Source: a virus. From it: DNA of 11,713 bases. The first letter of the stretch is position 1. Each line of letters starts with the position of its first letter. The stretch spans positions 1-11,713 of IMG/VR virus record IMGVR_UViG_3300045988_012850. One strand, 5' to 3'. The notes beneath the pieces were generated by a model. The model did not search any database. It was not told the origin of the DNA and saw only the letters and a list, made by a program, of their open reading frames with translations. Position numbers and translations under genes: made by a program. Positions 41 to 11,713 of the stretch are shown here, in pieces.

Positions 41-104
41 AAAGGTACACTAGGCACGCAGATTTAACATTTCCCAACTATCTTTAACAGTTGTTAACAC
101 ACTT

Positions 105-128
105 TGGCACGCTTTTTGTTCTGTGCCA
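105..128. promoter_or_regulatory. Inverted repeat TGGCAC-N12-GTGCCA, a candidate dimeric protein-binding site (origin or regulatory)
   Basis: tggcac (105..110) and gtgcca (123..128) are exact reverse complements. The site sits in repeat unit 1. The same GGCACGC 7-mer also occurs at 53..59, near the genome tip. Confidence 0.5.
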
Positions 129-172
129 CAATTACGATTATTTAACACATTTAACACATCGTTAACACACTT

Positions 173-195
173 TGGCACGCTTTTTGTCTGTGCCA
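173..195. promoter_or_regulatory. Inverted repeat TGGCAC-N11-GTGCCA, second copy
   Basis: tggcac (173..178) and gtgcca (190..195) lie in repeat unit 2. The spacer is one T shorter than in unit 1. Confidence 0.5.
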
Positions 196-257
196 CAATT
201 ACGATTATTTAACATATTTAACACACCGTTAACACTGTTAAACTTTCATAAAAATAA

Positions 258-336
258 TGTTTCACGTGGAACGGTGGTAACGGTTGTTTCACGTGGAACA
301 AATGGCGAAAGATGAAAATTGTCTCACGTGGAACAA
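258..336. promoter_or_regulatory. Cluster of three CACGTG-core operator-like boxes (TYTCACGTGGAAC)
   Basis: ttcacgtggaac occurs at 261..272 and 288..299, and ctcacgtggaac at 323..334. Each is a near-palindrome (GTTYCACGTGRAAC). A related perfect palindrome lies at 5179..5190. Confidence 0.6.
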
Positions 337-389
337 ACAAGTGTTAACAACAGTTAATTTATTTCTTTAAGACTTTTTAACGGAAATAA

Positions 390-421
390 TTTGGTGGTTT
401 CGCAAAAACGTTGTATCTTTG
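390..421 (+). promoter_or_regulatory. Bacteroidota-type promoter (-33 TTTG / -7 TAnnTTTG) firing inward from the left ITR
   Basis: TTTG at 390..393, a 20-nt spacer, then TATCTTTG at 414..421. The extended core ATTTGGT ... TATCTTTGCA is identical to the internal promoter at 5208..5239. The ITR ends 2 nt after the -7 box. Confidence 0.65.
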
Positions 422-470
422 CACCGTGTTTAAGAAACATATAAGTTTAACAAATTAAATTAGGTAAATT

Positions 471-638
471 ATGAATGAGAATTTTAATGAAACTGTTTTC
501 AACTGTATTACTAGTGTTAATGCTCTTATGACTTCAAACGAAGTTGCTAAAGACGATAAGGCGGTTATTAAGTTGAACCGCTTTAAGAAGTGGTTGAACG
601 AATTTGCGGTTGCAAACGGTGTGAACGAAGTTAAGTAA
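471..638 (+). CDS. Hypothetical small protein (55 aa), first gene of the left arm
   Basis: ATG 471 to TAA 636..638 (MNENFNETVF...ANGVNEVK). It is below the ORF-track cutoff and about 45 nt downstream of the ITR promoter, on the same strand as the following genes. No motif recognised. Confidence 0.45.
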   Translation: MNENFNETVFNCITSVNALMTSNEVAKDDKAVIKLNRFKKWLNEFAVANGVNEVK

Positions 639-688
639 TAACAGGCGTTCAATGACAACAGAAGTTTAACGTTTAAAAGATTTGAGTT

Positions 689-1045
689 ATGCCAAAAGGT
701 TTTAGTTTTGCTGGTACTTTTAATAGAACTAGTTTCGGGATTGATACAACAGATTTCCCGTTTGTTAAGTTGGTAGATATTTTCAAAGATGAGGGCGGTG
801 ATGTGGTGCACCCTATCAACGGTTTGTATGTGCATAAATCACAATTGGGGGATTCACCCGTTATCATTGATGCCGAAAACAAACGTCTTGTTAACTTACC
901 ACAGTTTACAGGTGACACGATTCGTGAAATTTTGGCGAATAGTGATGCTGTCGATGCCATCAAAGCGAACAAAGTTGGTTACACGATTTATGAATATGAA
1001 TCGCACGCCAAAAAGTGTTACGGTATTACCTTTGTAGATAAGTAG
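689..1045 (+). CDS. Hypothetical early protein, 118 aa (candidate abundant replication-accessory or DNA-binding protein; function not established)
   Basis: Clean ORF in the gene-dense + strand series, followed by an intrinsic terminator. It sits upstream of the terminal-protein and polymerase genes, analogous to the phi29 p5/p6 genes. No diagnostic motif seen. Confidence 0.7.
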   Translation: MPKGFSFAGTFNRTSFGIDTTDFPFVKLVDIFKDEGGDVVHPINGLYVHKSQLGDSPVIIDAENKRLVNLPQFTGDTIREILANSDAVDAIKANKVGYTIYEYESHAKKCYGITFVDK

Positions 1046-1072
1046 TTGTAAGGTAAAAGGGTTGATAACGCC

Positions 1073-1117
1073 ACGGGGGTAAACAGTAATTTATTTATTG
1101 TTACCCCCGTTTTGTTT
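1073..1117 (+). terminator. Rho-independent terminator or attenuator
   Basis: acgggggtaa (1073..1082) pairs with ttacccccgt (1101..1110), followed by tttgttt. No new promoter motif appears before the next gene at 1139. Confidence 0.7.
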
Positions 1118-1138
1118 CATTTTAAATTTTAGCAAGTT

Positions 1139-1801
1139 ATGGCAAAAAGAAATCCAATAGGGTTTAGCAAAAGAGCTTTTTCATTTACGGGTAAAATTCA
1201 CGTAAAAAGTGAGATTTTAACCGCTTTGGAATCTGACCCCGTGTTAAGAAAAGAAATTGCACGAACTTTTCAACAGGCAAACCGACGCATACAAAACGTT
1301 GAAAATTCGGGCATTGTTTCGCCTGCGGTTGTTGCCCTTAACAAAGGTGACGTAAAAGGGTTTGCAAAGTTTTCAATGAAACACGATTGGAACGATTTAA
1401 AAATTGAATATGCCAAAGCGGTAGCGTTTTTGCAACAACCTACATCAACTGCAACAGGTACAAAAGAATATGCGCAACACCTAAAGCGTACGTACAAACT
1501 GAATGATGATGAATTTAGTTTGATGCAAAATAAGTTAATGGGTAAGATTGCAAGTGTTTCCGATGAAAAGTTTTTGGAACAGTATTTAATGCAATACAAA
1601 GACTTTACAGGTGAACTTGAGCAAGAAAGCAAAGACGTTTCAGACCAAATCGAAGATGATGCTATAAAAATAGCAGATTCGTTGCAAGATGATTTGAACG
1701 AACAGGCTAAAGCCATCGAAGAAGAACAGGAACGAATGAGCGGTTTATTAGATGATACACTCGCAAAGATTTTAAAAAGTTTCAAAAAATTCGGTTTGTA
1801 A
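1139..1801 (+). CDS. Putative terminal protein (protein primer), 220 aa
   Basis: It lies immediately upstream of the protein-primed polymerase, with a TAATG stop/start overlap (1799..1803); this is the canonical TP-pol order of phi29 and PRD1. The N-terminus is basic (MAKRNPIGFSKRAF). The C-terminal half is strongly acidic and helical (DQIEDDAIKIADSLQDDLNEQAKAIEEEQE), like the DNA-mimicking priming domain of phi29 TP. The genome has ITRs. Confidence 0.55.
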   Translation: MAKRNPIGFSKRAFSFTGKIHVKSEILTALESDPVLRKEIARTFQQANRRIQNVENSGIVSPAVVALNKGDVKGFAKFSMKHDWNDLKIEYAKAVAFLQQPTSTATGTKEYAQHLKRTYKLNDDEFSLMQNKLMGKIASVSDEKFLEQYLMQYKDFTGELEQESKDVSDQIEDDAIKIADSLQDDLNEQAKAIEEEQERMSGLLDDTLAKILKSFKKFGL

Positions 1802-4011
1802 TGAAAAAGATATCCTTTGAACTTCACAACGAAATTTACACGCCTAAAGATATTTCAAAGGTTTTATCTTTGGCGGTGAATGAAAAGAACTTCACAGGAA
1901 ACAATAAGGGCGAAAAGTTCTTAAATGTGCCTGTTTCATTTGATATTGAAACTACTTCATTTTATCGTGACGAAGACGGGGAAACATATAGTTATGACCG
2001 TTACATAAAATTAGGTGGCAAAGATACCAAAATGGAAAAATGTAGTTTAATGTATGTTTGGCAATTTGGAATAAATGGTTTTTGCATTATTGGTAGAACG
2101 TGGGAAGAATTTTTGCAAATGTTAGATTACATCGTTGATATATTGGGTTTAAACCAAGAAAGGCGCATTATTATATACGTTCACAATTTGGCATACGAGT
2201 TCCAATTTTTACGAAAAATGCTAAAATGGGAAAAAGTTTTCTCTATTGATTTGCGCAAACCGATTTACGGAATAACAAAAAGCGGTTTAGAGTTCCGTTG
2301 CTCTTATTTGCTTTCGGGTTATTCGTTGGCGAAATTGGGTGAACAACTTCACAAATATAAATGTGAAAAGTTGGTAGGTGATTTAGACTATAGTCTATTA
2401 CGTCACAGCAAAACCCCGTTAACGCCAAAAGAAATTGGCTATTGTTTGAACGATATAAAAGTAGTTATGTGTTACATACAGGAACTTTTAGAACGTTACA
2501 AAGGAATAACAAAGCTACCAATAACAAAAACTGGTTTCGTGCGTAAATATTGCCGTTCTGTATGCTTTAAGACAACAGACCCTGAAACAGGAAAAACGAT
2601 TCCAAACTTTAAATATTTGGATAAAATCCACAATTTAAATATTACAGGTATGGAAGAATTTTTAATGTTACAAAGGGCATTTTCGGGCGGTTTCACGCAC
2701 GCCAACGCAAAATATACCGATGAGGTGATAGAAAACGTTGATAGCTACGATTTTACTAGCAGTTACCCTTATGTGATGGTTTCCGAAAAATTCCCGATGA
2801 GCACGGGCGTCGTTGTTCCCGTTAAATCGATGAAACAATTTGAGTTTATGACTAGTAAATTTTGTTGTGTTTTTGATATTGAGATAACAAACATATTTGC
2901 AAAATCAGAAAACGAAAACCCAATATCTGTTAGTAAGTGTTTCGTAAAAGAAAACGTTTCCGAGAATAACGGGCGTTTAGTTTGTGCAACAAAGATTTGT
3001 ATGACGATTACCGAAATAGATTTCAAAGTTTTTTCACAGTTTTACACGTGGGAACAAATCAGAATCGGGCGAATGATATGCTACAGAAAAGAATATTTGC
3101 CTACAGAGTTTGTGGAATCTATTTTGCACCTTTACGAAATGAAGACGAAACTAAAAGGCGTTAATGGCAAAGAAGTAGAGTATCTGAATAGCAAAGAAAT
3201 GCTAAACAGTTGTTACGGTATGTGTGTTACAAACCCGTTGCGTGATGAAATTTTGTGTGACGGTGAATCGTGGGATATTGAACACCTTACAGGGGAAAAG
3301 CAATTGGAAACGCTGCAAAAATACAATGACAGCAAAAACCGTTTCTTGTTTTACCCTTGGGGTATTTACGTTACCGCTTATGCAAGACGTAATCTGTTTA
3401 CGGGTATTGCCGAATGTGGTGACGATTATATATATAGTGATACCGATAGCGTTAAAATTATGAACGGTGATGCTCACAAAGAATATTTTGCCGCTTACAA
3501 TATGTTATCACAACAAAAATTACGTGCAGCCTGTAAGCACCACAAAATACCATTTGAAAAGGTTGAACCCGTCACGGTAAAGGGAATCGCCAAACCGTTG
3601 GGTGTTTGGGATTACGAGGGGCGATACACCCGTTTCAAAACTTTGGGTGCAAAACGCTATATGGTGGAAGAAGAAAACGCCCTGACAGTAAACGGCAAAG
3701 ATTACAATTACAGTATTACCGTTTCGGGTGTTAACAAGAAATCTGCTATCCCTTATATGCTAGAAACGTTTGGGGAAAACGGAATCTTTGACGCTTTCAC
3801 GAATTATCTAGATATTCCACCGAGTGCAACAGGCAAGAATATACACACGTATATTGATTACGAACAAACAGGAACTATAAAAGATTACACGGGCACGGTT
3901 TCAAGTTACGACACGTTAACGGGTGTTCATCTAGAGCCAACAGGGTACACGTTAAGTCTTTCAGTTCTTTATATAAATTATTTAATGGGAATTCGACTTA
4001 AAAAAGAATAG
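1801..4011 (+). CDS. Protein-primed family-B DNA polymerase (phi29-like pPolB), 736 aa
   Basis: All signature motifs are present in order. These are ExoI FDIETTS, ExoII YVHNLAYEFQF, ExoIII YCLNDIKV, motif A YDFTSSYPYVM (Dx2SLYP), motif B KEMLNSCYG (Kx3NSxYG), motif C YSDTDS (3433..3450) and KxY (GAKRY). Confidence 0.96.
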   Translation: MKKISFELHNEIYTPKDISKVLSLAVNEKNFTGNNKGEKFLNVPVSFDIETTSFYRDEDGETYSYDRYIKLGGKDTKMEKCSLMYVWQFGINGFCIIGRTWEEFLQMLDYIVDILGLNQERRIIIYVHNLAYEFQFLRKMLKWEKVFSIDLRKPIYGITKSGLEFRCSYLLSGYSLAKLGEQLHKYKCEKLVGDLDYSLLRHSKTPLTPKEIGYCLNDIKVVMCYIQELLERYKGITKLPITKTGFVRKYCRSVCFKTTDPETGKTIPNFKYLDKIHNLNITGMEEFLMLQRAFSGGFTHANAKYTDEVIENVDSYDFTSSYPYVMVSEKFPMSTGVVVPVKSMKQFEFMTSKFCCVFDIEITNIFAKSENENPISVSKCFVKENVSENNGRLVCATKICMTITEIDFKVFSQFYTWEQIRIGRMICYRKEYLPTEFVESILHLYEMKTKLKGVNGKEVEYLNSKEMLNSCYGMCVTNPLRDEILCDGESWDIEHLTGEKQLETLQKYNDSKNRFLFYPWGIYVTAYARRNLFTGIAECGDDYIYSDTDSVKIMNGDAHKEYFAAYNMLSQQKLRAACKHHKIPFEKVEPVTVKGIAKPLGVWDYEGRYTRFKTLGAKRYMVEEENALTVNGKDYNYSITVSGVNKKSAIPYMLETFGENGIFDAFTNYLDIPPSATGKNIHTYIDYEQTGTIKDYTGTVSSYDTLTGVHLEPTGYTLSLSVLYINYLMGIRLKKE

Positions 4012-4013
4012 TT

Positions 4014-5153
4014 ATGAAACAGAAAAAAGAAAAGGTTGAAACACTGAAATTTTACACGTTGAATCGCATTTTATCAAAAAATGCCGATTACAATGTGATT
4101 TTCGGTGAACGTTCCAACGGTAAAACCTATGCAACGTTGTTGTATGGCATCAAAGAATATTTGCGCACGGGTAAGCAAATGGCATATATTCGTAGATGGC
4201 GTGAAGATTTAAGGGGCAAACGTGCCGAAAGTTTATTCAGTAATCACGTTGCAAACGGTGTGGTACAAGAATTAACAGGCGGTAAATTTAACGAAGTGTT
4301 TTATGTTTCGGGAAAATGGTATCTTTCGTCTTATGATGCCGAAACAAAGAAACGCGTACCCGATAACACCCCGTTTTGTTTCGGTTTCTGTTTATCAGAA
4401 CAGGAACACGAAAAATCTAGCAGTTACCCGAATATAACTACTATCGTTTTCGATGAGTTCCTGACAAGACGTTATTATTTGCCAGACGAATTTATGCTAT
4501 ATATGAACCTGTTAAGCACGATTATTCGACAGCGAAACGACGTTAAAGTTTTTATGCTTGGTAACACCGTGAATCAGTTTTGCCCGTATTTCTCTGAAAT
4601 GGGTTTAAAACAAGTTCGCACAATGGAACAGGGCACAATAGATATTTATAAATTCGGTGAGCATGGAGCAACGGTGGCGGTTGAATATTGCAGCACGATT
4701 GTTAAACATAAAGCTAGTAACAAATACTTTTGTTTTGACAATGAAAATTTGCAGATGATTACGGGCGGTAAATGGGAACTTGCGGCTTATCCTCATTTGC
4801 CTGTAAAATACAAACCGAATGACGTTTTGTTTGTCTTCTATATTCAGTTTAACGAAATGACCTTGCAGGGAAACGTTATTCAAGTGGAAGACAAAGAAAC
4901 AGGGGTTAACAACTTTATTTACATACATAATAAAACAACCCCGATTAAAGACGTTGACAACAGTTTGATATATTCTTTGCAAATGAACGGCAAACCCAAC
5001 TACAAACGAAAGTTGTTGAGTACTGCGACTTATGTAGAATCACAGATAACTAAGTTTTTCGCCACCGATAAGGTATTTTATCAGAATAACGAAATAGGTG
5101 AAATTGTGCGTAATTACTTGATGGCAAGTGCAAGAAGTAACATTATTACTTAA
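4014..5153 (+). CDS. DNA packaging (encapsidation) ATPase, phi29 gp16-like, 379 aa
   Basis: Walker A GERSNGKT (4104..4127) and Walker B IVFDEF (D147/E148 at 4452..4457). The segment EKSSSYPNITTIVFDEFLTRRYYLPDEFMLYMNLLSTIIRQRNDVKVFMLGN is collinear with phi29 gp16 SEKSNAYPNVSTIVFDEFIRE...LLNLMDTVFRNRERVRCICLSN, as I remember it. Confidence 0.9.
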   Translation: MKQKKEKVETLKFYTLNRILSKNADYNVIFGERSNGKTYATLLYGIKEYLRTGKQMAYIRRWREDLRGKRAESLFSNHVANGVVQELTGGKFNEVFYVSGKWYLSSYDAETKKRVPDNTPFCFGFCLSEQEHEKSSSYPNITTIVFDEFLTRRYYLPDEFMLYMNLLSTIIRQRNDVKVFMLGNTVNQFCPYFSEMGLKQVRTMEQGTIDIYKFGEHGATVAVEYCSTIVKHKASNKYFCFDNENLQMITGGKWELAAYPHLPVKYKPNDVLFVFYIQFNEMTLQGNVIQVEDKETGVNNFIYIHNKTTPIKDVDNSLIYSLQMNGKPNYKRKLLSTATYVESQITKFFATDKVFYQNNEIGEIVRNYLMASARSNIIT

Positions 5154-5161
5154 TATCTGTT

Positions 5162-5191
5162 AACGGTGGTTAAAAATATTTCACGTGAAAC
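5162..5191. promoter_or_regulatory. Operator module AACGGTGGT-N9-TTTCACGTGAAAC upstream of the internal promoter
   Basis: The 30-nt stretch aacggtggttaaaaatatttcacgtgaaac aligns without gaps to ITR 270..299 (aacggtggtaacggttgtttcacgtggaac; 22/30 identical in two blocks). It contains the perfect 12-bp palindrome tttcacgtgaaa (5179..5190). Confidence 0.6.
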
Positions 5192-5207
5192 AATTTTCCC
5201 CGTTTTA

Positions 5208-5239
5208 TTTGGTAATATCAAATAATATTCTTATCTTTG
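5208..5239 (+). promoter_or_regulatory. Bacteroidota-type promoter for the structural (late) gene block
   Basis: TTTG at 5208..5211, a 20-nt spacer, then TATCTTTG at 5232..5239. This is the same extended core as both ITR promoters. It lies in the 118-nt gap between the ATPase stop and the ATG at 5272. Confidence 0.65.
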
Positions 5240-5271
5240 CATCATTAAATAACAAAGTTAAAATTTACTAT

Positions 5272-5466
5272 ATGGACGTAAACGCAATAGTATCTCTAGT
5301 TAGTAACGTGGGTTTTCCTGTAGCGGTTTGTGTCGCCCTTTTCTTCTATATGGAGAAACAGAATGAACGTCACCAACAGGAAACCGACAAGTTAAACGAA
5401 ACCGTGCAAAGTAACACTAAGGTATTAACGGAACTTTGCACCTTAATTAAAACGATTGTTAAATAA
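5272..5466 (+). CDS. Small single-pass membrane protein, YvrJ-like (holin candidate), 64 aa
   Basis: I use the internal ATG at 5272, because the track start at 5185 lies upstream of the promoter. MDVNAIVSLVSNVGFPVAVCVALFFYMEK has one hydrophobic helix with the N-x-GFP motif typical of YvrJ-family proteins, followed by a charged helical tail. The stop overlaps the portal ATG (TAATG). Confidence 0.6.
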   Translation: MDVNAIVSLVSNVGFPVAVCVALFFYMEKQNERHQQETDKLNETVQSNTKVLTELCTLIKTIVK

Positions 5467-6503
5467 TGGAGAAAGAAAATTTATATAACAGGTATCAAAC
5501 AGAAGTTAAAAACAAAGATTCTGCATTATTCACGTTTATGCAACGAGTTCTTTGTATGACTTCAAAGATGTTTGAATATACGGGCACACCCGAAACGATT
5601 CCGCCCGTTGAACTTGAAAAGATTCTGCAAACATCGGGTAACGTTGGAATAGCAGAAGTTAACGGTAAACTGTATGCGTTACAGGGTACACGTGGTGGTG
5701 AATGTGATGCCTATTATCGCGGCAAAGATTACACGGTAGCAAACCCGTGGTTAAATTTGAGCAAAACGTTCAAAATTGATTCCGATATTGTCGTTATCAA
5801 CAACACACCGTTTGCGGATTCGCTTTTGCCGTTAATTGGTAAATATGGTGTTCTTTACACCGATGCAACAATAACGCTCAATTTGGCTAGTATTTTAACT
5901 AGAATCACGATGATTATTTCTGCTAGTGACGATAAGACCAAACAAAGTGCTGAATCGTTTTTGCAGAAAATTTTAAACGGTGATTTTTCCGTTATCGGTG
6001 AAAATGCCTTTTTCAAAGGTGTTAATATGCAAACACCACTAGCACAGGGAAACCAACAAATCGGGCAATTAATTGAACTTTTGCAGTATTATAAGGCATC
6101 AATGTTTAACGATTTAGGTTTGAACGCAAACTATAATATGAAGCGTGAACGTTTGAACACGCAAGAAGTTTCGATGAATATAGATGCTTTAATGCCGTTT
6201 GTTGATTCAATGTTAACGGAACGTGTTGAGGGTGTTAAACGTGTTAACGAAATGTTTGGCACGGATATTACGGTAACGTTGGGGTCTAGTTGGAAAATTG
6301 AGCACGAAAACTATTTATCGTTGCTTAAAGCATCGGAAGACGGACACGACCACACCGACACGGAAGACGTTGACCCTGTAACGGAAAACGAACCAGAAGA
6401 AACGCAAGAAACAGAAGAAACGGAAACAGAAACAGAAGAAACGCAAGAAACAGAAGAAACAGAAACTGAAACAGAAGAAAACAAAGAAGACGATGAAAAT
6501 TAA
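5466..6503 (+). CDS. Portal / upper collar connector protein, phi29 gp10-like, 345 aa
   Basis: It is collinear with phi29 gp10 as I remember it. [27 protein letters not shown] matches [42 protein letters not shown] matches [29 protein letters not shown] matches INELYGLNVKVKF. The acidic C-terminal tail is expanded here. Confidence 0.9.
   Translation: [345 protein letters not shown]
6396..6482 (+). repeat. 39-bp in-frame tandem repeat (about 2.2 copies) encoding [13 protein letters not shown] at the portal C-terminus
   Basis: Units at 6396..6434 and 6435..6473 differ at 2 positions, and a partial third copy follows. Codon phase was verified ((6396-5466) is divisible by 3). Confidence 0.9.
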
Positions 6504-7062
6504 CGAACTTTTCACGGGTGAAAATGGTTTGTTTGAAAAAATCTTTGCGCCCCTGTTTCCTGTTTTGTACAAATCAATATTCGGGGAAGATGACCCGAAA
6601 TTAATAGATATTGATTTTCGTTTCAAATATGGAAACAAAATTCTTGTTGATGCCGTAACAAACGAAACCGCAAACGATATTGTTAAAAGCATTATCACGG
6701 TGAAGTTTGACGAATGGCAAAAACAAATTCAAGTGTTTAATAACGAATATGACGTGTTAAATCCGGTAACGTCAAAGACAACGGAAACAACAAGTAACAC
6801 CGTTGACGAAACAGGCAATAATAACACGGTCGATTCAAGTACAACGTTTAATAATGGAGATTTCGGAAATGATGCAAAACAACAGCGAGAATCCACAGGA
6901 AACCGACAAGAAACAGGCACGAAAACAAGTGTTAAGAATGGTTTGCCGTCTAGTGTTCCTGTTAGTGAAATTATTCAAAAAGAAATGAGTTTGCGCAAAA
7001 CCAATTTCAAAACGCAAGTTATTGCAGAACTTGCACATGGGTTAACAATAGATATTTATTAA
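6493..7062 (+). CDS. Virion-associated protein of unknown role, 189 aa (scaffold or lower-collar/adaptor candidate)
   Basis: It overlaps the portal stop by 11 nt and sits between the portal and capsid genes. It has an N-terminal globular part, a T/N/S-rich linker (TSKTTETTSNTVDETGNNNTVDSSTT) and a C-terminal helix. Function is assigned from position only. Confidence 0.7.
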   Translation: MKINELFTGENGLFEKIFAPLFPVLYKSIFGEDDPKLIDIDFRFKYGNKILVDAVTNETANDIVKSIITVKFDEWQKQIQVFNNEYDVLNPVTSKTTETTSNTVDETGNNNTVDSSTTFNNGDFGNDAKQQRESTGNRQETGTKTSVKNGLPSSVPVSEIIQKEMSLRKTNFKTQVIAELAHGLTIDIY

Positions 7063-7081
7063 TACTTAATTTTTATAAAAA

Positions 7082-8266
7082 ATGGAAGTAAAACAGATTT
7101 ATAGTTTAATTAACACCGTATCGAGTGAAGTATTGGGTGAAACCGATATTGTAAGTGAGGATTTAACGGGTATCGTTGATTTGGGTAACGAGATTTTTAA
7201 TCAGAATGCCGTTGATAATTACGTGAAGTCACTTGTGAATCACATCGGCAAAGTCGTTTTCGTAAACCGCCCTTATAGCGGCAAAGTTCCTAGCGTTTTG
7301 ATGGATGCTTGGGAATTTGGTAGCGTTTTGGAAAAAATATCAGCTGACGTTCCAAAAGCAGAAGAGAATGACACATGGAACTTACAGGACGGTATAGAGT
7401 ACAAACAGGACGTATTTCACAAACCGACCGTTTCGGCTAAGTTCTTCAACTCAAAGGTAACTTTTGAGGTACCCGTATCTATCACAGAAAGACAGGTAAA
7501 AGAATCTTTCAGCAGTGCAGAACAACTCAACGGCTTTTTGTCGATGATTTATTCAGCAGTTGAGAAGTCAATGACCATCAAGACAGATGCACTAGTTATG
7601 CGCACAATTAACAATATGATTGCGGAAACTTTGAACGCTGATAAAACCGCTTTCGGGTTTGTTTCATCAACAAATGAAACTGTCGATTACTCTACTGCGT
7701 CAACAGTTCGTTGTGTAAACCTGTTGAAACTTTACAACGATAAGACGGGCGCACAGTTGGCGGCAAACGTTGCCGTAACAACACCCGATTTTATCCGTTT
7801 TGCCGCTTACATTATGGGTTTGTATGCTGACCGTTTGCAGACCATTTCAACTTTGTTCAACGTTGGCGGTAAGGAACGTTTCACACCGAAAGATGTGCTG
7901 CATACCGTTTTGTTGAGTGACTTTGCAGCCGCTGCAAAAACCTACCTGTATGCCGATACGTTCCATAACGAGAATGTTTTGTTGCCACAGGCTGAAACCG
8001 TTGCAAGTTGGCAAGCAACAGGCAAAGATTACGCTTTCGCCAACGTTTCAAAGGTTGACGTTAAGAGTGCAAGCGGTGCAGACGTTTCTATCAGTGGCGT
8101 TTTGGGTGTGATGTTTGACCGCGACTCTTTGGGTGTTACAAATTTGGATAAGCGAGTAACAACCAACTACAACGCCAAAGCAGAATTTTTCAACAATTAC
8201 TTCAAATTCGATGCAGGCTACTTCAATGACACAAACGAAAACTTTGTTGTGTTCTTTGTTGCCTAA
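7082..8266 (+). CDS. Major capsid protein (putative), 394 aa
   Basis: It is the only ORF of suitable size in the head-gene position, after the portal and scaffold-like genes. The strongest hairpin terminator in the window follows it. The N-terminal pattern (LINTVSSEVLGE..IVSEDLTGIVDLG...DNYVKSLVNHIGKVV) resembles picovirus-type capsid proteins from memory. No search was run. Confidence 0.7.
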   Translation: MEVKQIYSLINTVSSEVLGETDIVSEDLTGIVDLGNEIFNQNAVDNYVKSLVNHIGKVVFVNRPYSGKVPSVLMDAWEFGSVLEKISADVPKAEENDTWNLQDGIEYKQDVFHKPTVSAKFFNSKVTFEVPVSITERQVKESFSSAEQLNGFLSMIYSAVEKSMTIKTDALVMRTINNMIAETLNADKTAFGFVSSTNETVDYSTASTVRCVNLLKLYNDKTGAQLAANVAVTTPDFIRFAAYIMGLYADRLQTISTLFNVGGKERFTPKDVLHTVLLSDFAAAAKTYLYADTFHNENVLLPQAETVASWQATGKDYAFANVSKVDVKSASGADVSISGVLGVMFDRDSLGVTNLDKRVTTNYNAKAEFFNNYFKFDAGYFNDTNENFVVFFVA

Positions 8267-8284
8267 TTTGATTGTTTAACTGTT

Positions 8285-8331
8285 GGGGTGTTCCTGTAGT
8301 TGATAGCACAGGAATGCCCCTTTTAATTTTT
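8285..8331 (+). terminator. Rho-independent terminator after the capsid gene
   Basis: ggggtgttcctgt (8285..8297) pairs with acaggaatgcccc (8308..8320) as a 13-bp stem with two G-U pairs, followed by ttttaattttt. Confidence 0.75.
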
Positions 8332-8335
8332 CGGT

Positions 8336-8779
8336 ATGATTAAAATCAAAACATTTGTTTATAACGGAAAACCAAACGAAGTGAATAAGACTTTACAGGC
8401 AAATGAAGAGTACACGGGCGTATTGAATGCAACGTTTAACGTTTTAACGCCTGTTGTGCGTTTCAGAACTCGCACGCCTGTTACGTTTAATTACGTTTAT
8501 ATTGAAAGTTTGAACCGTTATTATTTCGTTTCAGAAAAGCAACAAGACGGTGATATTTGCACAGTTCGTTTGCGTGTTGACGTTCTGTTTACTTATAAGG
8601 ATATTATCTTAAATAGTAAGGGAACGTTGACAAAGGGCGAAAATGTTAACGAATATCTTTCAAACCGTTCAAACGTTTTCGATTCACGCCCTAATATTAG
8701 GAAACTAGATTTTCCGAATAAAGAGTTGTTGAATGAAACAGGTAGTATTATTATGGTAACAATTAAGGGAAATGTTTAA
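8336..8779 (+). CDS. Tail protein resembling the N-terminal domain of phi29 tail-knob gp9, 147 aa
   Basis: NYVYIESLNRYYFVSEKQQDGDICTVRLRVDVLFTY resembles the gp9 segment SYIMFQN..KWFYAFVTELEF...VHFEIDVLQTW (from memory). The ORF ends 2 nt before the next tail ORF. Confidence 0.55.
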   Translation: MIKIKTFVYNGKPNEVNKTLQANEEYTGVLNATFNVLTPVVRFRTRTPVTFNYVYIESLNRYYFVSEKQQDGDICTVRLRVDVLFTYKDIILNSKGTLTKGENVNEYLSNRSNVFDSRPNIRKLDFPNKELLNETGSIIMVTIKGNV

Positions 8780-8781
8780 TT

Positions 8782-10344
8782 ATGAAAGTAACTTATAATA
8801 TTTCAGAACAAACAACCGTTATCGGTGACAAACCCGAAACGATAGAAAAAGGCGAAACTTTAAATTTGACCTTACAGGCAAACACGGGATATAAGTTTGA
8901 ACCCGTGCCGTTGGTTGCTATCAGAACAACAAGTTTCCAATATATCAACACAAACTTTGTTTTGGATTCCGCAGGGAAAAAAGCAACGATTTCTTATGAG
9001 ATTCCATCGAATGCTTCAACATGTACCGTTAAAGCGTTTACGGTTGAAAGCGCAGACCCTGTGCCCGAAACCGTCACAGTTACAAATACGTTGTCAAATT
9101 GTACTAGTTCGTTAAACAATGGCACGGTAAACAAAGGGGAAGAGATAACAATAACTTTAACCGCAAACACGGGGTTTTCTTTTTCGGGTGTTGCCCCAAC
9201 TATTGACTACGAAACAACGGGCACACCGTCACCAATTTTTAATGTATCTAGCGACAAATTAACGGCATCGGTGACAATTACCCCAAACGACAATTTTACA
9301 ATTAATGCCAACGCCTACGAAATTAAAACGTTTGTAAACGTTACATATAATTTAAAAAATTGTGTTTCAAGTTTGACGGGTAAAACTGTAGAAAAGGGCA
9401 AAGAAATTACGGTAACGGTAACGGCAAACGAAAACGCTATATTTGACGGAATCACACCAAACGTTTACTATCTAGAGCACGGAATACCAAAAACGGTAAA
9501 CTTCACGCTAGATACCGACAAGAAAACGGGAACGCTAACATTTACGCCAAATTTCAACTTTACTTTGAATGCCGATGCAAATATAGTTGAACCTGTTGCC
9601 AAAAATTACGGTGCAATTAATGTTTATAAAGTAAGTTTGGAAAATCTAGATGCTTTCAGTAAGCAACGTTTTTCTAAAGTGGTTAATGAAACAACAGGTG
9701 CAACACAAACCGTTAATTTGGGCGTATATGTGAACCGTATTAAGCGTATTTTTACAAACGTTCCTGTAAGTGGTACGGATAATTTGAAATGCGGTAACTA
9801 CGATACAAAAATTGTTGTAGAATCGCCAAAAACCGATATTATAACAATAGATTTCGGTAACATTACCCTTACAGGGTTAAACGGTAACAATGCCGATTTC
9901 GATGCAAAGATTTCGGTTTTTATCCCGTGCCGTGGGTTTGTTTCTGTTGATAGTTCGTATATTGGTAAGATGATTAATTTGTCTTTGAAAGTTAACATCG
10001 TTACGGGTGATGCTGTGGCGTTCCTATCGTGTGACAATGTATCGTTTCAGTTTGAAAGTTTTTCTTTGTCACGTGATGTTATTTATCGAACAGGGGATAA
10101 CGATTTAAATATTGTTGGCGGTGACGAATGGAACGAACAAATTTTGTATGGTTTAGAACCTTACGTTTTAATAACGGAAAATAAAACCGTTGACGTTGTA
10201 ATTAACAACACGCAAAAAGATGTAACGTTGAAAGACGTTACAGGGTTTGCACAGTTTGAAAACGTAAATTTGAACACTGCAAATTTGTTGGTAGATGAAT
10301 ATAACGAAATTGTTTCACAACTTGAAACAGGCGTTTATCTATAA
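8782..10344 (+). CDS. Tail / receptor-binding protein, 520 aa: three tandem ~90-aa beta-rich repeats plus a gp9-like C-terminal domain
   Basis: The repeats span aa 1-96, 97-183 and 184-271 (nt 8782..9594). They share v.kGe.it.tltAntGf.F, resembling InlB B-repeat / Listeria-Bacteroides repeat domains. The C-terminal segment KISVFIPCRGFVSVDSSYIGKMINLSLKVNIVTG resembles the central gp9 segment [26 protein letters not shown]. Confidence 0.7.
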   Translation: MKVTYNISEQTTVIGDKPETIEKGETLNLTLQANTGYKFEPVPLVAIRTTSFQYINTNFVLDSAGKKATISYEIPSNASTCTVKAFTVESADPVPETVTVTNTLSNCTSSLNNGTVNKGEEITITLTANTGFSFSGVAPTIDYETTGTPSPIFNVSSDKLTASVTITPNDNFTINANAYEIKTFVNVTYNLKNCVSSLTGKTVEKGKEITVTVTANENAIFDGITPNVYYLEHGIPKTVNFTLDTDKKTGTLTFTPNFNFTLNADANIVEPVAKNYGAINVYKVSLENLDAFSKQRFSKVVNETTGATQTVNLGVYVNRIKRIFTNVPVSGTDNLKCGNYDTKIVVESPKTDIITIDFGNITLTGLNGNNADFDAKISVFIPCRGFVSVDSSYIGKMINLSLKVNIVTGDAVAFLSCDNVSFQFESFSLSRDVIYRTGDNDLNIVGGDEWNEQILYGLEPYVLITENKTVDVVINNTQKDVTLKDVTGFAQFENVNLNTANLLVDEYNEIVSQLETGVYL

Positions 10345-10389
10345 AAGAAAACAGGCGGTAAAATGTTACCGCCTGTTTTATTATTTTTT
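10343..10389. terminator. Bidirectional intrinsic terminator at the convergent junction
   Basis: aaaacaggcggtaa (10348..10361) pairs with ttaccgcctgtttt (10366..10379) around a 4-nt loop. It is flanked by an A-run upstream and a T-run downstream. It sits exactly between the stop codons at 10344 (+) and 10381 (-). Confidence 0.8.
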
Positions 10390-10629
10390 GCCGTAAAACT
10401 CATTTAACAACCCTTTGTTATTGATAAACGTTAACAATGCGTTTCGTTCTGCTAGATACGTTTGCGCTTTTACTTCTAAAGCATCAATAAAAGTTAAGTC
10501 TGCCTGTAAGGTATCGGCGCACGAAGTCAACATCAAACCTTTTTCGCTATCCGAATCGTTGGCGACAGTTTCCAAACTTTTCTTTGTTAACGAAATGGAA
10601 TCTTTTAACAGTTGGAAATGTTCTTTCAT
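10381..10629 (-). CDS. Hypothetical helical protein, 82 aa, translationally coupled to the endolysin
   Basis: It has an ATGA start/stop overlap with the upstream endolysin gene (10626..10629). The sequence looks helical. No TM segment, signal peptide or known motif was seen. Confidence 0.65.
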   Translation of the reverse strand: MKEHFQLLKDSISLTKKSLETVANDSDSEKGLMLTSCADTLQADLTFIDALEVKAQTYLAERNALLTFINNKGLLNEFYGKK

Positions 10630-11051
10630 TTCTTTTCTAGATTCATTATAATTTGATTACGGGGTTTGCCGTTACGTGGGCAAACTGAAACGTGAAACCA
10701 AAACAAGTTAGGAAACCCTTTGCGGTGTTCTTTAATAAGTTGGTCAAAACCGCCTGTTTCTCTTAACACCGATTCAAGTTTTGCCATATCAGTACAAACC
10801 AAATCAGCCGCCAAACCTTTTTGGTGTTGACTGTTAACAACACCACCAACGGCTTTATTTAAGGCGGTGCAACGATAGCCACTACTAACAAGAATCGGTT
10901 TACCTAACTTTTCACGGATAACATCTAAATAATAGGCTAACTTATTCAAGTTATCTACTACCTCAAATGTAGGGGTGTTATCAATCCCTAAACGTTTTGC
11001 TGTTGCTGAGTTCAAAAACTCAGACAAGCTAAAATACTTAATCTTTTTCAT
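10626..11051 (-). CDS. Endolysin, peptidase M15 family (zinc D-Ala-D-Ala / L-Ala-D-Glu type peptidase), 141 aa
   Basis: It carries the Peptidase_M15_3-type signature FSLSEF...GKPILVSSGYRC..LN..VGG..NSQHQKGLAADL...WFHVSV, with an H..D..H zinc triad. There is no signal peptide. Confidence 0.9.
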   Translation of the reverse strand: MKKIKYFSLSEFLNSATAKRLGIDNTPTFEVVDNLNKLAYYLDVIREKLGKPILVSSGYRCTALNKAVGGVVNSQHQKGLAADLVCTDMAKLESVLRETGGFDQLIKEHRKGFPNLFWFHVSVCPRNGKPRNQIIMNLEKK

Positions 11052-11058
11052 ATCTATT

Positions 11059-11253
11059 TTATGTTGGAGAAACTACAAACCATTTACGACTGACTTCGTG
11101 TGTCGGGAATCTGCCTTTAACAGTTATAGAACAATCCCCCGAAAGAAAATCTATTTTGTTGTTAAAGAACTCGCTTACTTTGTCAGAACGTACCATATAA
11201 ACGGTAACGTTATTAACCTGTTTCAAAATGATTTTAAAATAACTATATTCCAT
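11059..11253 (-). CDS. Hypothetical small protein, 64 aa, first gene of the right arm
   Basis: I start at the internal ATG (11251..11253, MEYSYFKIIL...). The track start at 11295 lies inside the -7 promoter box of the right ITR. No motif recognised. Confidence 0.5.
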   Translation of the reverse strand: MEYSYFKIILKQVNNVTVYMVRSDKVSEFFNNKIDFLSGDCSITVKGRFPTHEVSRKWFVVSPT

Positions 11254-11292
11254 ATTCTTATTATTTAACTGTTTAACTTTTAATTTATGCTG

Positions 11293-11324
11293 CAAAGATA
11301 CAACGTTTTTGCGAAACCACCAAA
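11293..11324 (-). promoter_or_regulatory. Bacteroidota-type promoter firing inward from the right ITR
   Basis: Mirror image of 390..421. On the minus strand TTTG is at 11324..11321 and TATCTTTG at 11300..11293. Confidence 0.65.
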
Positions 11325-11377
11325 TTATTTCCGTTAAAAAGTCTTAAAGAAATAAATTAACTGTTGTTAACACTTGT

Positions 11378-11456
11378 TTGTTCCACGTGAGACAATTTTC
11401 ATCTTTCGCCATTTGTTCCACGTGAAACAACCGTTACCACCGTTCCACGTGAAACA
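11378..11456. promoter_or_regulatory. Three CACGTG-core boxes, right ITR copy
   Basis: Mirror of 258..336, e.g. gttccacgtgag at 11380..11391. Confidence 0.6.
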
Positions 11457-11477
11457 TTATTTTTATGAAAGTTTAAC

Positions 11478-11621
11478 AGTGTTAACGGTGTGTTAAATAT
11501 GTTAAATAATCGTAATTGTGGCACAGACAAAAAGCGTGCCAAAGTGTGTTAACGATGTGTTAAATGTGTTAAATAATCGTAATTGTGGCACAGAACAAAA
11601 AGCGTGCCAAAGTGTGTTAAC
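11478..11621. repeat. Tandem 68/67-nt repeat, right ITR copy
   Basis: Mirror of 93..236. It contains the two TGGCAC/GTGCCA palindromes and the phased TTAAC arrays. Confidence 0.92.
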
Positions 11622-11673
11622 AACTGTTAAAGATAGTTGGGAAATGTTAAATCTGCGTGCCTAGTGTACCTTT

Positions 11674-11713
11674 AGATCGGAAGAGCACACGTCTGAACTC
11701 CAGTCACAGGTTA
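11674..11713. other. Illumina TruSeq-type adapter read-through, a technical artefact
   Basis: agatcggaagagcacacgtctgaactccagtcac followed by aggtta (index bases). Confidence 0.95.

Follow-up and report, generated by a model that had tools for sequence, protein, structure and literature searches.

The virus record IMGVR_UViG_3300045988_012850 of IMG/VR was analysed over its full length of 11,713 nucleotides (hereafter the window). It contains one linear DNA molecule of 11,633 bp (positions 41-11673) which is flanked on both sides by Illumina adapter. The molecule has a guanine plus cytosine (GC) content of 36.8% and carries 14 plausible genes occupying approximately 90% of its length, 11 on the plus strand and three on the minus strand; no tRNA genes were found in the 11,633 bp. 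It is regarded as the complete linear double-stranded DNA genome of a small lytic podophage of the human gut that is phi29-like and belongs to the Astrithrvirus-like group, and it probably infects a member of the Bacteroidota.

Genome ends and terminal repeats

The Illumina adapters were read directly as ...GTGACTGGAGTTCAGACGTGTGCTCTTCCGATCT at positions 1-40, a TruSeq sequence that is not part of the phage, and as AGATCGGAAGAGCACACGTCTGAACTCCAGTCAC at positions 11674-11713. The repeat finder detected a single inverted repeat of 423 nt with 100% identity (1-423 and 11291-11713) which includes the adapter. Subtracting the adapter leaves a perfect inverted terminal repeat (ITR) of 383 bp: the left ITR (41-423) begins with 5'-AAAGGTACAC and is 100% complementary to the right ITR (11291-11673) revealed by the inverted-repeat search.

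The junction between adapter and phage terminus recurs in other public contigs. In an independently assembled relative with 84% DNA identity (L013) the end consists of the adapter ...GCTCTTCCGATCT followed by AAAGGTACAC, and AAAGGTACAC is located at the start or end of at least 28 of 80 IMG/VR relatives, in many of them directly after ...GCTCTTCCGATCT. The ITRs of the IMG/VR relatives are 100-420 bp long. Since the AAAGGTACAC terminus is shared by independent contigs, the ends of the window are genuine physical DNA termini and no accident of assembly.

A fold-back chimera, or a misassembly caused by adapters of a genome that is in fact longer or circular, might also give rise to ITRs and to an apparently complete genome, and the adapter within the contig does indicate that reads were left untrimmed. 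However, the same end, with ITRs in the above size range, was obtained independently in dozens of assemblies which stem from different samples, the lengths of related contigs cluster at 11.2-12.7 kb, and the full gene set is syntenic with that of isolated phages of 11.5-11.9 kb. Such an artefact is therefore extremely improbable. The complete linear genome with perfect ITRs and 14 genes that had been proposed in a sequence-only reading of this DNA is borne out by the inverted repeat, the open reading frames (ORFs) and the shared termini.

By analogy to phi29 the ITRs would function as origins of protein-primed replication. In phi29 a run of three T residues in the template serves initiation and sliding back, and the ITR ends of the window, which start with AAA, would offer a template run of the same type. 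The terminus of the window, 5'-AAAGG, resembles the phi29 end, 5'-AAAGTA (PMC11476376). The left ITR furthermore contains two tandem direct repeats of approximately 67-68 bp (families D3 and D13; positions 93-235) which are rich in GTTAACA and are mirrored in the right ITR. The GTTAACA motif occurs 26 times versus 5.5 expected occurrences, and much of the excess falls within the ITRs. Protein p6 of phi29 has binding sites at the ends of the phi29 genome; in a similar manner the GTTAACA-rich repeats may be sites for a replication or end-organising protein.

Untrimmed adapter was also present at the contig ends of L013, L059, L062, L070, L076, L107, L119, L122, L123 and L126. The adapters in public contigs of the lineage are of the TruSeq type, with Nextera in L119. 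Such adapters at contig ends are a useful marker of true DNA ends, yet they are a contamination of the databases. Among the IMG/VR relatives L053-L131 the two ITR arms are often only 80-98% alike, compared with 100% in the window, which could be due to true divergence or to assembly from mixed strains.

Gene content and transcription units

The genes are arranged in three transcription units, each preceded by a TTTG/TAnnTTTG promoter. The left promoter (390-421, plus strand), of the Bacteroidota type TTTG-N20-TATCTTTG, stops 2 nt short of the inner edge of the ITR. The motif search also identified its inward-reading copy in the right ITR (11293-11324, minus strand) and a middle, late promoter of the same structure (5208-5239, plus strand). 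A fourth candidate at 1027-1034 (TACCTTTG) was rejected, since the motif falls within the coding sequence of a 118-aa protein, at the conserved 3' end of its gene.

From the ITR promoters two inward units would be transcribed. The rightward early unit would start with two small proteins and proceed via an attenuator hairpin to the terminal protein, the polymerase and the packaging ATPase, and the leftward unit at the right end would comprise a 64-aa protein, the endolysin and an 82-aa protein. The promoter at 5208-5239, preceded by a palindrome with the core CACGTG, would drive the late unit encoding the holin-like protein, the portal, the lower-collar candidate and the capsid protein and, after a second attenuator, the two tail-knob proteins. 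The late and the right-end unit would then share a bidirectional terminator.

The palindrome TTTCACGTG(G/A)AAC is present at seven sites, three per ITR and one before the late promoter. The copies in the left ITR read TTTCACGTGGAAC (260-272, 287-299 and 322-334; together 260-334) and have their mirror images at 11380-11454 in the right ITR, and the fourth distinct site (5179-5191) lies approximately 20 nt upstream of the middle promoter. The 12 strand-hits exceed the expected 0.21 and were reached in 0 of 200 shuffles, and the palindrome is kept in the relatives L012, L013, L044, L046 and L018. It is likely an operator for a regulator of the early/late switch, which would bind at these sites.

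A GC-rich hairpin followed by a U-run, a putative terminator or attenuator, was detected between the genes of the 118-aa protein and the terminal-protein candidate (1073-1110, plus strand; -28.7 kcal/mol, z=-3.96). According to single-sequence folds, all six SD-free (Shine-Dalgarno-free) relatives that were examined have a hairpin in the same place with a different stem sequence (L012:724-807, L013:742-833, L014:991-1061, L016:681-731, L044:1790-1900 and L046:1657-1737). The hairpin probably lowers the expression of the terminal protein, the polymerase and the ATPase relative to the two small early proteins. A further hairpin with a U-run, again a putative attenuator, is located downstream of the capsid gene (8285-8320, plus strand; -23.2 kcal/mol, z=-3.55), and a bidirectional intrinsic terminator with a 14-bp stem was predicted on both strands between the converging units (10348-10379; -21.2 kcal/mol, z=-6.9).

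The replication genes include a family-B DNA polymerase of the protein-primed type (1801-4011, plus strand; 736 aa; PF03175, DNA_pol_B_2, 2.5e-15; phrog_1907, 1.6e-73) which matches the phi29 polymerase structure 1XHX (E=1.7e-8). None of the motifs ExoI-III, A, B, C and KxY is missing. The spacing of 148 aa between motifs A and B and of 80 aa between B and C is similar to that in phi29 and would leave room for TPR1 and TPR2. The start of the polymerase gene overlaps the stop of the preceding gene (ATGA at 1801), which encodes a 220-aa protein (1139-1801, plus strand) with a basic N-terminus and an acidic C-terminus. This protein shares 32% identity with gp02 of Salmonella phage astrithr, which has been called phi29 p3-like (PMC11476376). 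Based on its position and on this homology it is presumably the terminal protein and, like that of phi29, would serve as the primer of replication at the 3'-TTT ends of the two ITRs. The conserved residues Ser61 and Thr102 are candidates for its linkage to the DNA.

Two small genes precede it. The ORF of the 55-aa early protein (471-638, plus strand) is called as a gene in other assemblies; the protein is 96% conserved in L012 and L013 and gave no match in the domain and family profile searches. The 118-aa early protein (689-1045, plus strand) has homologues in 10 relatives with identities as low as 33-36% and, from its position, is a candidate DNA-binding or single-stranded DNA-binding protein. 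Its identification with the single-stranded DNA-binding protein p5 of phi29 found no support in Pfam, PHROG, PDB or a comparison with PZA p5. Homologues of both small early genes were not detectable in astrithr.

The polymerase gene is followed by that of a gp16-type DNA packaging ATPase (4014-5153, plus strand; 379 aa; Podovirus_Gp16 PF05894, 2.4e-23). Walker A and B are present, and residues 13-195, thus the N-terminal ATPase domain only, match phi29 gp16 (5HD9, 1e-19); residues 197-379 matched nothing in Pfam or PDB. The late unit opens with a 64-aa holin-like membrane protein (5272-5466, plus strand; phrog_4898 holin, 1.1e-7; weak BhlA holin match), whose 64-aa form also occurs in other assemblies. 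Next to it is the gp10-like portal or upper collar connector (5466-6503, plus strand; 345 aa; Phage_connector PF05352, 3.3e-14; phrog_2038, 3.8e-37), with structural matches to 7PV2 (4e-11) and to phi29 gp10 (1H5W, 1.5e-7). At its C-terminus the portal has an acidic tail of low complexity (residues ~305-345, ETEETQETEE...) encoded by 9-nt repeats at 6380-6496. The length of the tail varies between strains, and the alignments to L012 and L013 end at residue 305. It could replace the missing scaffold or contact the DNA or the terminal protein.

The following 189-aa protein (6493-7062, plus strand) agrees in position and size with gp07 of astrithr and gp07 of Acinetobacter phage Phanie. It is a candidate for a shortened lower collar analogous to gp11, and short lower collars have been described in the Astrithrvirus-like group (PMC11476376). 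The major capsid protein (7082-8266, plus strand; 394 aa) is of the Phi29 type (Phi29_MCP PF25622, 2.4e-54).

The tail knob seems to be encoded by two genes, in the same way as in the Astrithrvirus-like group (PMC11476376). The 147-aa protein (8336-8779, plus strand) represents the N-terminal part, corresponding to the N-domain of phi29 gp9 and C1 gp12. Its profile matched the N-terminal regions of both C1 gp12 (4EO2, 4.3e-4) and phi29 gp9 (5FB4, 0.037), the hhalign comparison with PZA gp9 gave E=0.0018, and its homologue in Phanie is annotated as tail knob. The 520-aa protein (8782-10344, plus strand) contains three immunoglobulin-like (Ig-like)/InlB-B-type repeats (Flg_new_2, 1.7e-6) and a C-terminal domain, and its residues 277-518 match gp10 of astrithr (E about 6e-6). 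This homology, taken together with the published description of the group (PMC11476376), suggests that it forms the distal tail knob and the receptor-binding part. It is the most variable protein of the genome, with 48-52% identity at a capsid identity of 91% when the window (8782-10344) is compared to the strains L012 (8817-10370) and L013 (8490-10019), a pattern that would be expected of a host-range determinant.

The right-end unit starts with a 64-aa protein (11059-11253, minus strand), an ORF that is 78-91% conserved in L012 and L013. It is followed by an M15 zinc peptidase endolysin of 141 aa (10626-11051, minus strand; PF08291, Peptidase_M15_3, 5e-21; phrog_894, 1.8e-33), which possesses the H-x6-D motif and the downstream H, and by an 82-aa protein (10381-10629, minus strand), an ORF that is called in other assemblies and 39.5% conserved in L012.

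Relationship to phi29 and to the Astrithrvirus-like phages

The window is phi29-like with regard to its protein-primed polymerase, ITRs, gp16 ATPase, gp10 connector, Phi29-type capsid and gp9-type knob. With phi29/PZA it shares the linear genome starting with 5'-AAAG and terminating in ITRs, the protein-primed-type polymerase with all catalytic motifs, the N-domain of the gp16 ATPase, the gp10 connector, the Phi29_MCP capsid family and the N-domain of the gp9-type knob. It differs in size (11.6 kb versus 19.3 kb), in the length of the ITR (383 bp versus 6 bp) and in the lack of any detected homologue of the gp12 appendage, the gp8.5 head fibre, gp13 or the scaffold. The knob is split over two genes, no match to the packaging RNA (pRNA) was found, and the polymerases are only about 22% identical. 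The gene order also departs from that of phi29 in that the ATPase gene adjoins the polymerase gene, and the host signals are of a Gram-negative type.

The nearest characterised relatives at the protein level are phages of Salmonella (astrithr, Astrid and assan), Enterobacter, Shigella, Pectobacterium, Acinetobacter (Phanie) and Vibrio. Their genomes comprise 10.4-11.9 kb, and their capsid proteins and polymerases are 55-59% and 42-46% identical to those of the window, respectively. The set of phages allied with Astrithrvirus comprised astrithr, Astrid, assan, Entb_47, DU_PP_III, Phanie, K58 g2 and Shigella phage vB_SHGBLB0004. Like the window, the Astrithrvirus-like phages encode the terminal-protein candidate, the polymerase, the gp16 ATPase, a small membrane protein, the connector and a protein of ~185 aa, followed in the same order by the Phi29-type capsid protein, the ~147-aa N-terminal knob piece and the large distal knob protein, and they possess a leftward unit at the right end. 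Eight of the 14 proteins of the window have tblastn matches in astrithr in preserved order; the ATPases are about 51% identical, and the capsid protein shares 58% identity with that of Astrid. The M15 endolysin of the window is encoded on the opposite strand, whereas in the Astrithrvirus-like phages the endolysin gene follows the knob gene on the same strand. The ITR of 383 bp contrasts with one of 18 bp in the astrithr record.

Gene order, core homologues and a size within 10-14 kb place the window in the Astrithrvirus-like family-level group (cluster c23; PMC11476376). There was no megablast-level match to the window among the INPHARED phages. In the blastn comparison with Astrid a coverage of ~24% with 66% identity was obtained over a core of 6.5 kb. 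Under the genus rule of the International Committee on Taxonomy of Viruses (ICTV) a member must be identical to the type species in 70% or more of its nucleotides across the genome, and therefore the window is assigned, from this comparison, to a genus other than Astrithrvirus. In short, the window resembles phi29 in the way it works and Astrithrvirus in the way it is built; what distinguishes it is the host-specific rewiring of its expression signals and its long, promoter-bearing ITR.

The polymerase, gp16-like ATPase, gp10-like portal, capsid protein and M15 endolysin named in the sequence-only reading were all recovered by Pfam, PHROG or PDB profile matches. Its gp9-like tail pieces correspond to the split knob, with the 147-aa part identified by profile and the 520-aa part via the homology to astrithr gp10. 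The structural proteins proved to be phi29-like, and no double-jelly-roll capsid turned up. The idea of a newly compressed phi29 gene set had to be abandoned, as 10.4-11.9 kb is normal for the Astrithrvirus-like group (PMC11476376; 10.1101/2025.06.18.659913).

Several results count against parts of the overall interpretation. The terminal-protein candidate, which was part of the earlier reading as well, is supported by position and by homology to astrithr gp02, but the profile, hhalign and fold searches gave nothing: a 16-sequence profile produced coiled-coil noise only against PDB, hhalign assigned a probability of 0.9% to PZA gp3, and for the AlphaFold2 (AF2) model (121 sequences; predicted local distance difference test, pLDDT, 43.8) Foldseek found nothing at E<=0.001. 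The lower-collar candidate of 189 aa relies on synteny and on the review of its homologues; the PDB profile search returned nothing, the hhalign probability against PZA gp11 was 0.7%, and Foldseek found nothing with the AF2 model (pLDDT 44.8). The distal-knob assignment of the 520-aa protein likewise derives from synteny and that review, and a direct relationship to phi29/PZA gp9 was supported neither by the profile search nor by direct comparison. No pRNA was detected by Rfam in the window at E values up to 5, and the non-coding stretches outside the ITRs do not exceed 118 nt. As pRNAs diverge fast, the missing Rfam match does not prove that a pRNA is absent. The pRNA is regarded as restricted to phi29 and its relatives among the Bacillus phages (PMC11476376). 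The packaging motor of the window may attach to the portal without it.

A small phi29-like phage with a suggested Bacteroidales host has been described before, in a review of 2024. "Bacteriophage sp. isolate 2692_55609" (cluster c30) is a metagenome-assembled genome (MAG) of 12.1 kb from human faeces which, like the window, has a split tail knob (PMC11476376). By capsid and polymerase it is closest to Amedibacillus phage AD70P2 (PMC11476376). The capsid protein of the window is 29% identical to that of AD70P2 versus 58% to that of Astrid, and the GC content of isolate 2692_55609 is 42.5% versus 36.8% in the window. Compared in this way, via AD70P2 and the description in the review, isolate 2692_55609 most likely belongs to a different lineage.

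Mycoplasma phage P1, whose genome measures ~11.7 kb, carries ITRs and encodes a protein-primed polymerase, had served as the comparison in the sequence-only reading. It was not among the best 30 of 124 polymerase matches nor among the 22 capsid matches in the phage collection and, judged from these protein comparisons, it is no close relative of the window.

Relatives of the window are abundant in gut data. The identical capsid protein is encoded on Fijian gut metagenome contigs (PRJNA217052) and in other ENA and Logan assemblies, and its 90% cluster comprises 4,373 member sequences. A protein search yielded at least 8,000 clusters, the best 120 of which are all 90-93% identical, many of them on contigs of 11-12.4 kb. 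At least 355 related contigs are present in IMG/VR, and proteins of the GenBank entries "MAG: Bacteriophage sp." are 55-92% identical to those of the window (UVX96231.1 and UWH95134.1). For these relatives from IMG/VR, GenBank and MAGs no family classification or description was found, and an infant-gut study expanding the "Salasmaviridae" lists only Firmicutes and Actinobacteria as hosts (PMC10159846). The earlier reading of an undescribed lineage therefore holds in so far as the lineage is unnamed and unstudied and none of its near relatives has been placed in a family; it does not hold as to novelty, given that hundreds to thousands of near-identical genomes have already been deposited unclassified.

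Host and autonomy

Two kinds of expression signals point to the host. Upstream of the 14 start codons the mean duplex energy with the anti-Shine-Dalgarno (anti-SD) sequence is -1.4 kcal/mol, compared with -1.3 in the background of the genome and with a mean of -6.3 kcal/mol in astrithr. An energy of -4.5 or lower was reached by one of the 14 genes of the window versus 12 of the 15 genes of astrithr (p=1e-5). A survey of 30 related contigs found in MAGs showed that L012-L016, L018, L044 and L046 are SD-free like the window, and that none of ~20 other relatives is; the latter all possess strong SD sites. The SD-free contigs constitute one clade in both the capsid and the polymerase tree, apart from the proteobacterial Astrithrvirus clade.

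The second signal is the promoter. TTTG-N17-23-TAnnTTTG occurs five times versus 1.4 expected occurrences, and three distinct intergenic sites each face a transcription unit; astrithr, with its strong SD sites, has no TAnnTTTG promoters. When the spacer between the ATPase and holin genes of nine SD-free relatives was aligned, the six specified bases of TAnnTTTG were invariant in a spacer of only 51% overall identity, and all variants fit the refined consensus TAHHTTTG (PMC6847099). The non-coding DNA of the SD-free clade contains 3.8 TAHHTTTG motifs per kb, that of the SD-using relatives 0.9 per kb. A scan for sigma-70 promoters revealed no strong site where the transcription units begin.

In Bacteroidetes SD sequences are lacking, and the promoters have -33/-7 elements of the type TTTG/TAnnTTTG (PMC6847099). 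From the lack of SD sites together with TAnnTTTG promoters we infer that the host is quite likely a member of the Bacteroidota, probably one of the gut Bacteroidales, and that the clade appears to have moved to this host phylum. The Bacteroidota-type signals noticed in the sequence-only reading are thereby upheld, with SD sites lacking and the promoter present before all three units. The accompanying restriction of characterised phi29-like phages to Bacillota is outdated, as the nearest relatives infect Gammaproteobacteria (PMC11476376).

Some Cyanobacteria likewise translate without SD sequences (PMC6847099), and the sole handle on a direct host link, the MAG bins, is contradictory in itself; both points count against a Bacteroidota host. 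The two closest relatives, L012 and L013 (capsid 91% identical), sit in two independently built MAGs of Melainabacteria/Gastranaerophilales, so that another gut lineage with little SD use, with the non-photosynthetic Cyanobacteriota of the Gastranaerophilales as leading candidate, might be the host instead. However, the other SD-free relatives were binned with five inconsistent taxa (Prevotella, Scatosoma, Tissierella, Acutalibacteraceae and Christensenellaceae), as would result from misbinning of small phage contigs of low GC content. The bins, contradicting one another, were rejected as host evidence. A sigma-70 or cyanobacterial -10 box (TAnnnT) would furthermore explain only three of the six invariant bases of TAnnTTTG. 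In favour of Bacteroidota, a relative whose capsid protein is 78% identical was binned with Prevotella, and the exact capsid protein is encoded in samples of the Fijian gut, whose phages are reported to target mainly Prevotellaceae (PMC7895897, Gut Phage Database). Taken together, a host outside the Bacteroidota seems rather improbable.

Whether the phage is autonomous, as assumed here, is a separate matter, and its relative Phanie speaks against it. Phanie shares the gene order and a capsid protein of 58.6% identity with the window, has a short-knob capsid and is infectious only when attached to the tail of an unrelated helper, the myophage Aci01-1 (PMC11476376, citing Pourcel et al. 2024). 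The same has been suggested for other phi29-like phages of Gram-negative bacteria with a split tail knob and no fibre or spike genes (PMC11476376). The window itself revealed no fibre, spike or gp12-like appendage gene, which leaves the 520-aa knob protein with its Ig-like repeats as the sole candidate, and the names of two relatives ("K58 g2" and "Aci01-2") hint, as names only, at a second genome in the lysate. On the other hand, Salmonella phage Astrid has been described as "non-satellite" (preprint 10.1101/2025.06.18.659913), the window has its own replication, packaging and lysis genes, and the 520-aa protein varies at the pace of a receptor-binding protein. A dependence on a helper is thus considered unlikely. 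The more specific scenario, in which the gut clade is a Bacteroidota branch of the smallest tailed phages that hijack tails as satellites of Bacteroidales phages and package with a phi29-type motor lacking pRNA, is less likely still. If true, it would turn a large global gut population of "podophages" of 11-12 kb into satellites borrowing the tails of Bacteroidales phages.

Names or record structures resembling mixed lysates were noticed for OZ195715.1 (Vibrio phage K58 g2), OX458330.1 (Aci01-2-Phanie) and the multi-contig records OR845046-57 (S.Ent 1-35-3). Going by names and record structures only, this suggests that helper dependence could be common in the group.

Until recently the hosts of phi29-like phages were considered to be Gram-positive. 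With the Astrithrvirus group the Gammaproteobacteria joined them, and the clade of the window, with its probable Bacteroidota host, would bring this 14-gene design to a third host type. A Bacteroidales host is not a new idea for a phi29-like phage, as it has been proposed for the other cluster mentioned above (PMC11476376); the evidence presented here is stronger, resting on a whole clade with internal controls. Promoters and translation-start signals seem to have been completely changed on a conserved protein backbone, which would make the clade a clean natural example of the re-tuning of a minimal tailed phage that has crossed from one phylum to another. In data from the human gut the clade is very common, with thousands of capsid variants, yet it is unnamed and lacks an assigned host. 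Placing its host among the Bacteroidales would close a gap in the annotation of the gut virome. The small genome and the simple promoters would also suit a tool for Bacteroides or Prevotella.

L019, a contig of 5.3 kb binned with Phocaeicola, may stand for another adaptation to Bacteroidota that arose independently. This more distant relative, whose capsid protein is 65% identical to that of the window, lies outside the SD-free clade. Its SD scores are only intermediate, and its 1.1 kb of non-coding DNA contain six TAHHTTTG motifs.

Whole phage genomes of the family were detected in MAGs assigned to Gastranaerophilales, Prevotella, Phocaeicola, Elusimicrobiaceae, Omnitrophota, Christensenellaceae and others (L012-L048, GTDB representatives). 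Their presence in unrelated reference MAGs is a contamination by misbinning, and contigs of the clade of the window currently contaminate MAGs of unrelated taxa in this way.

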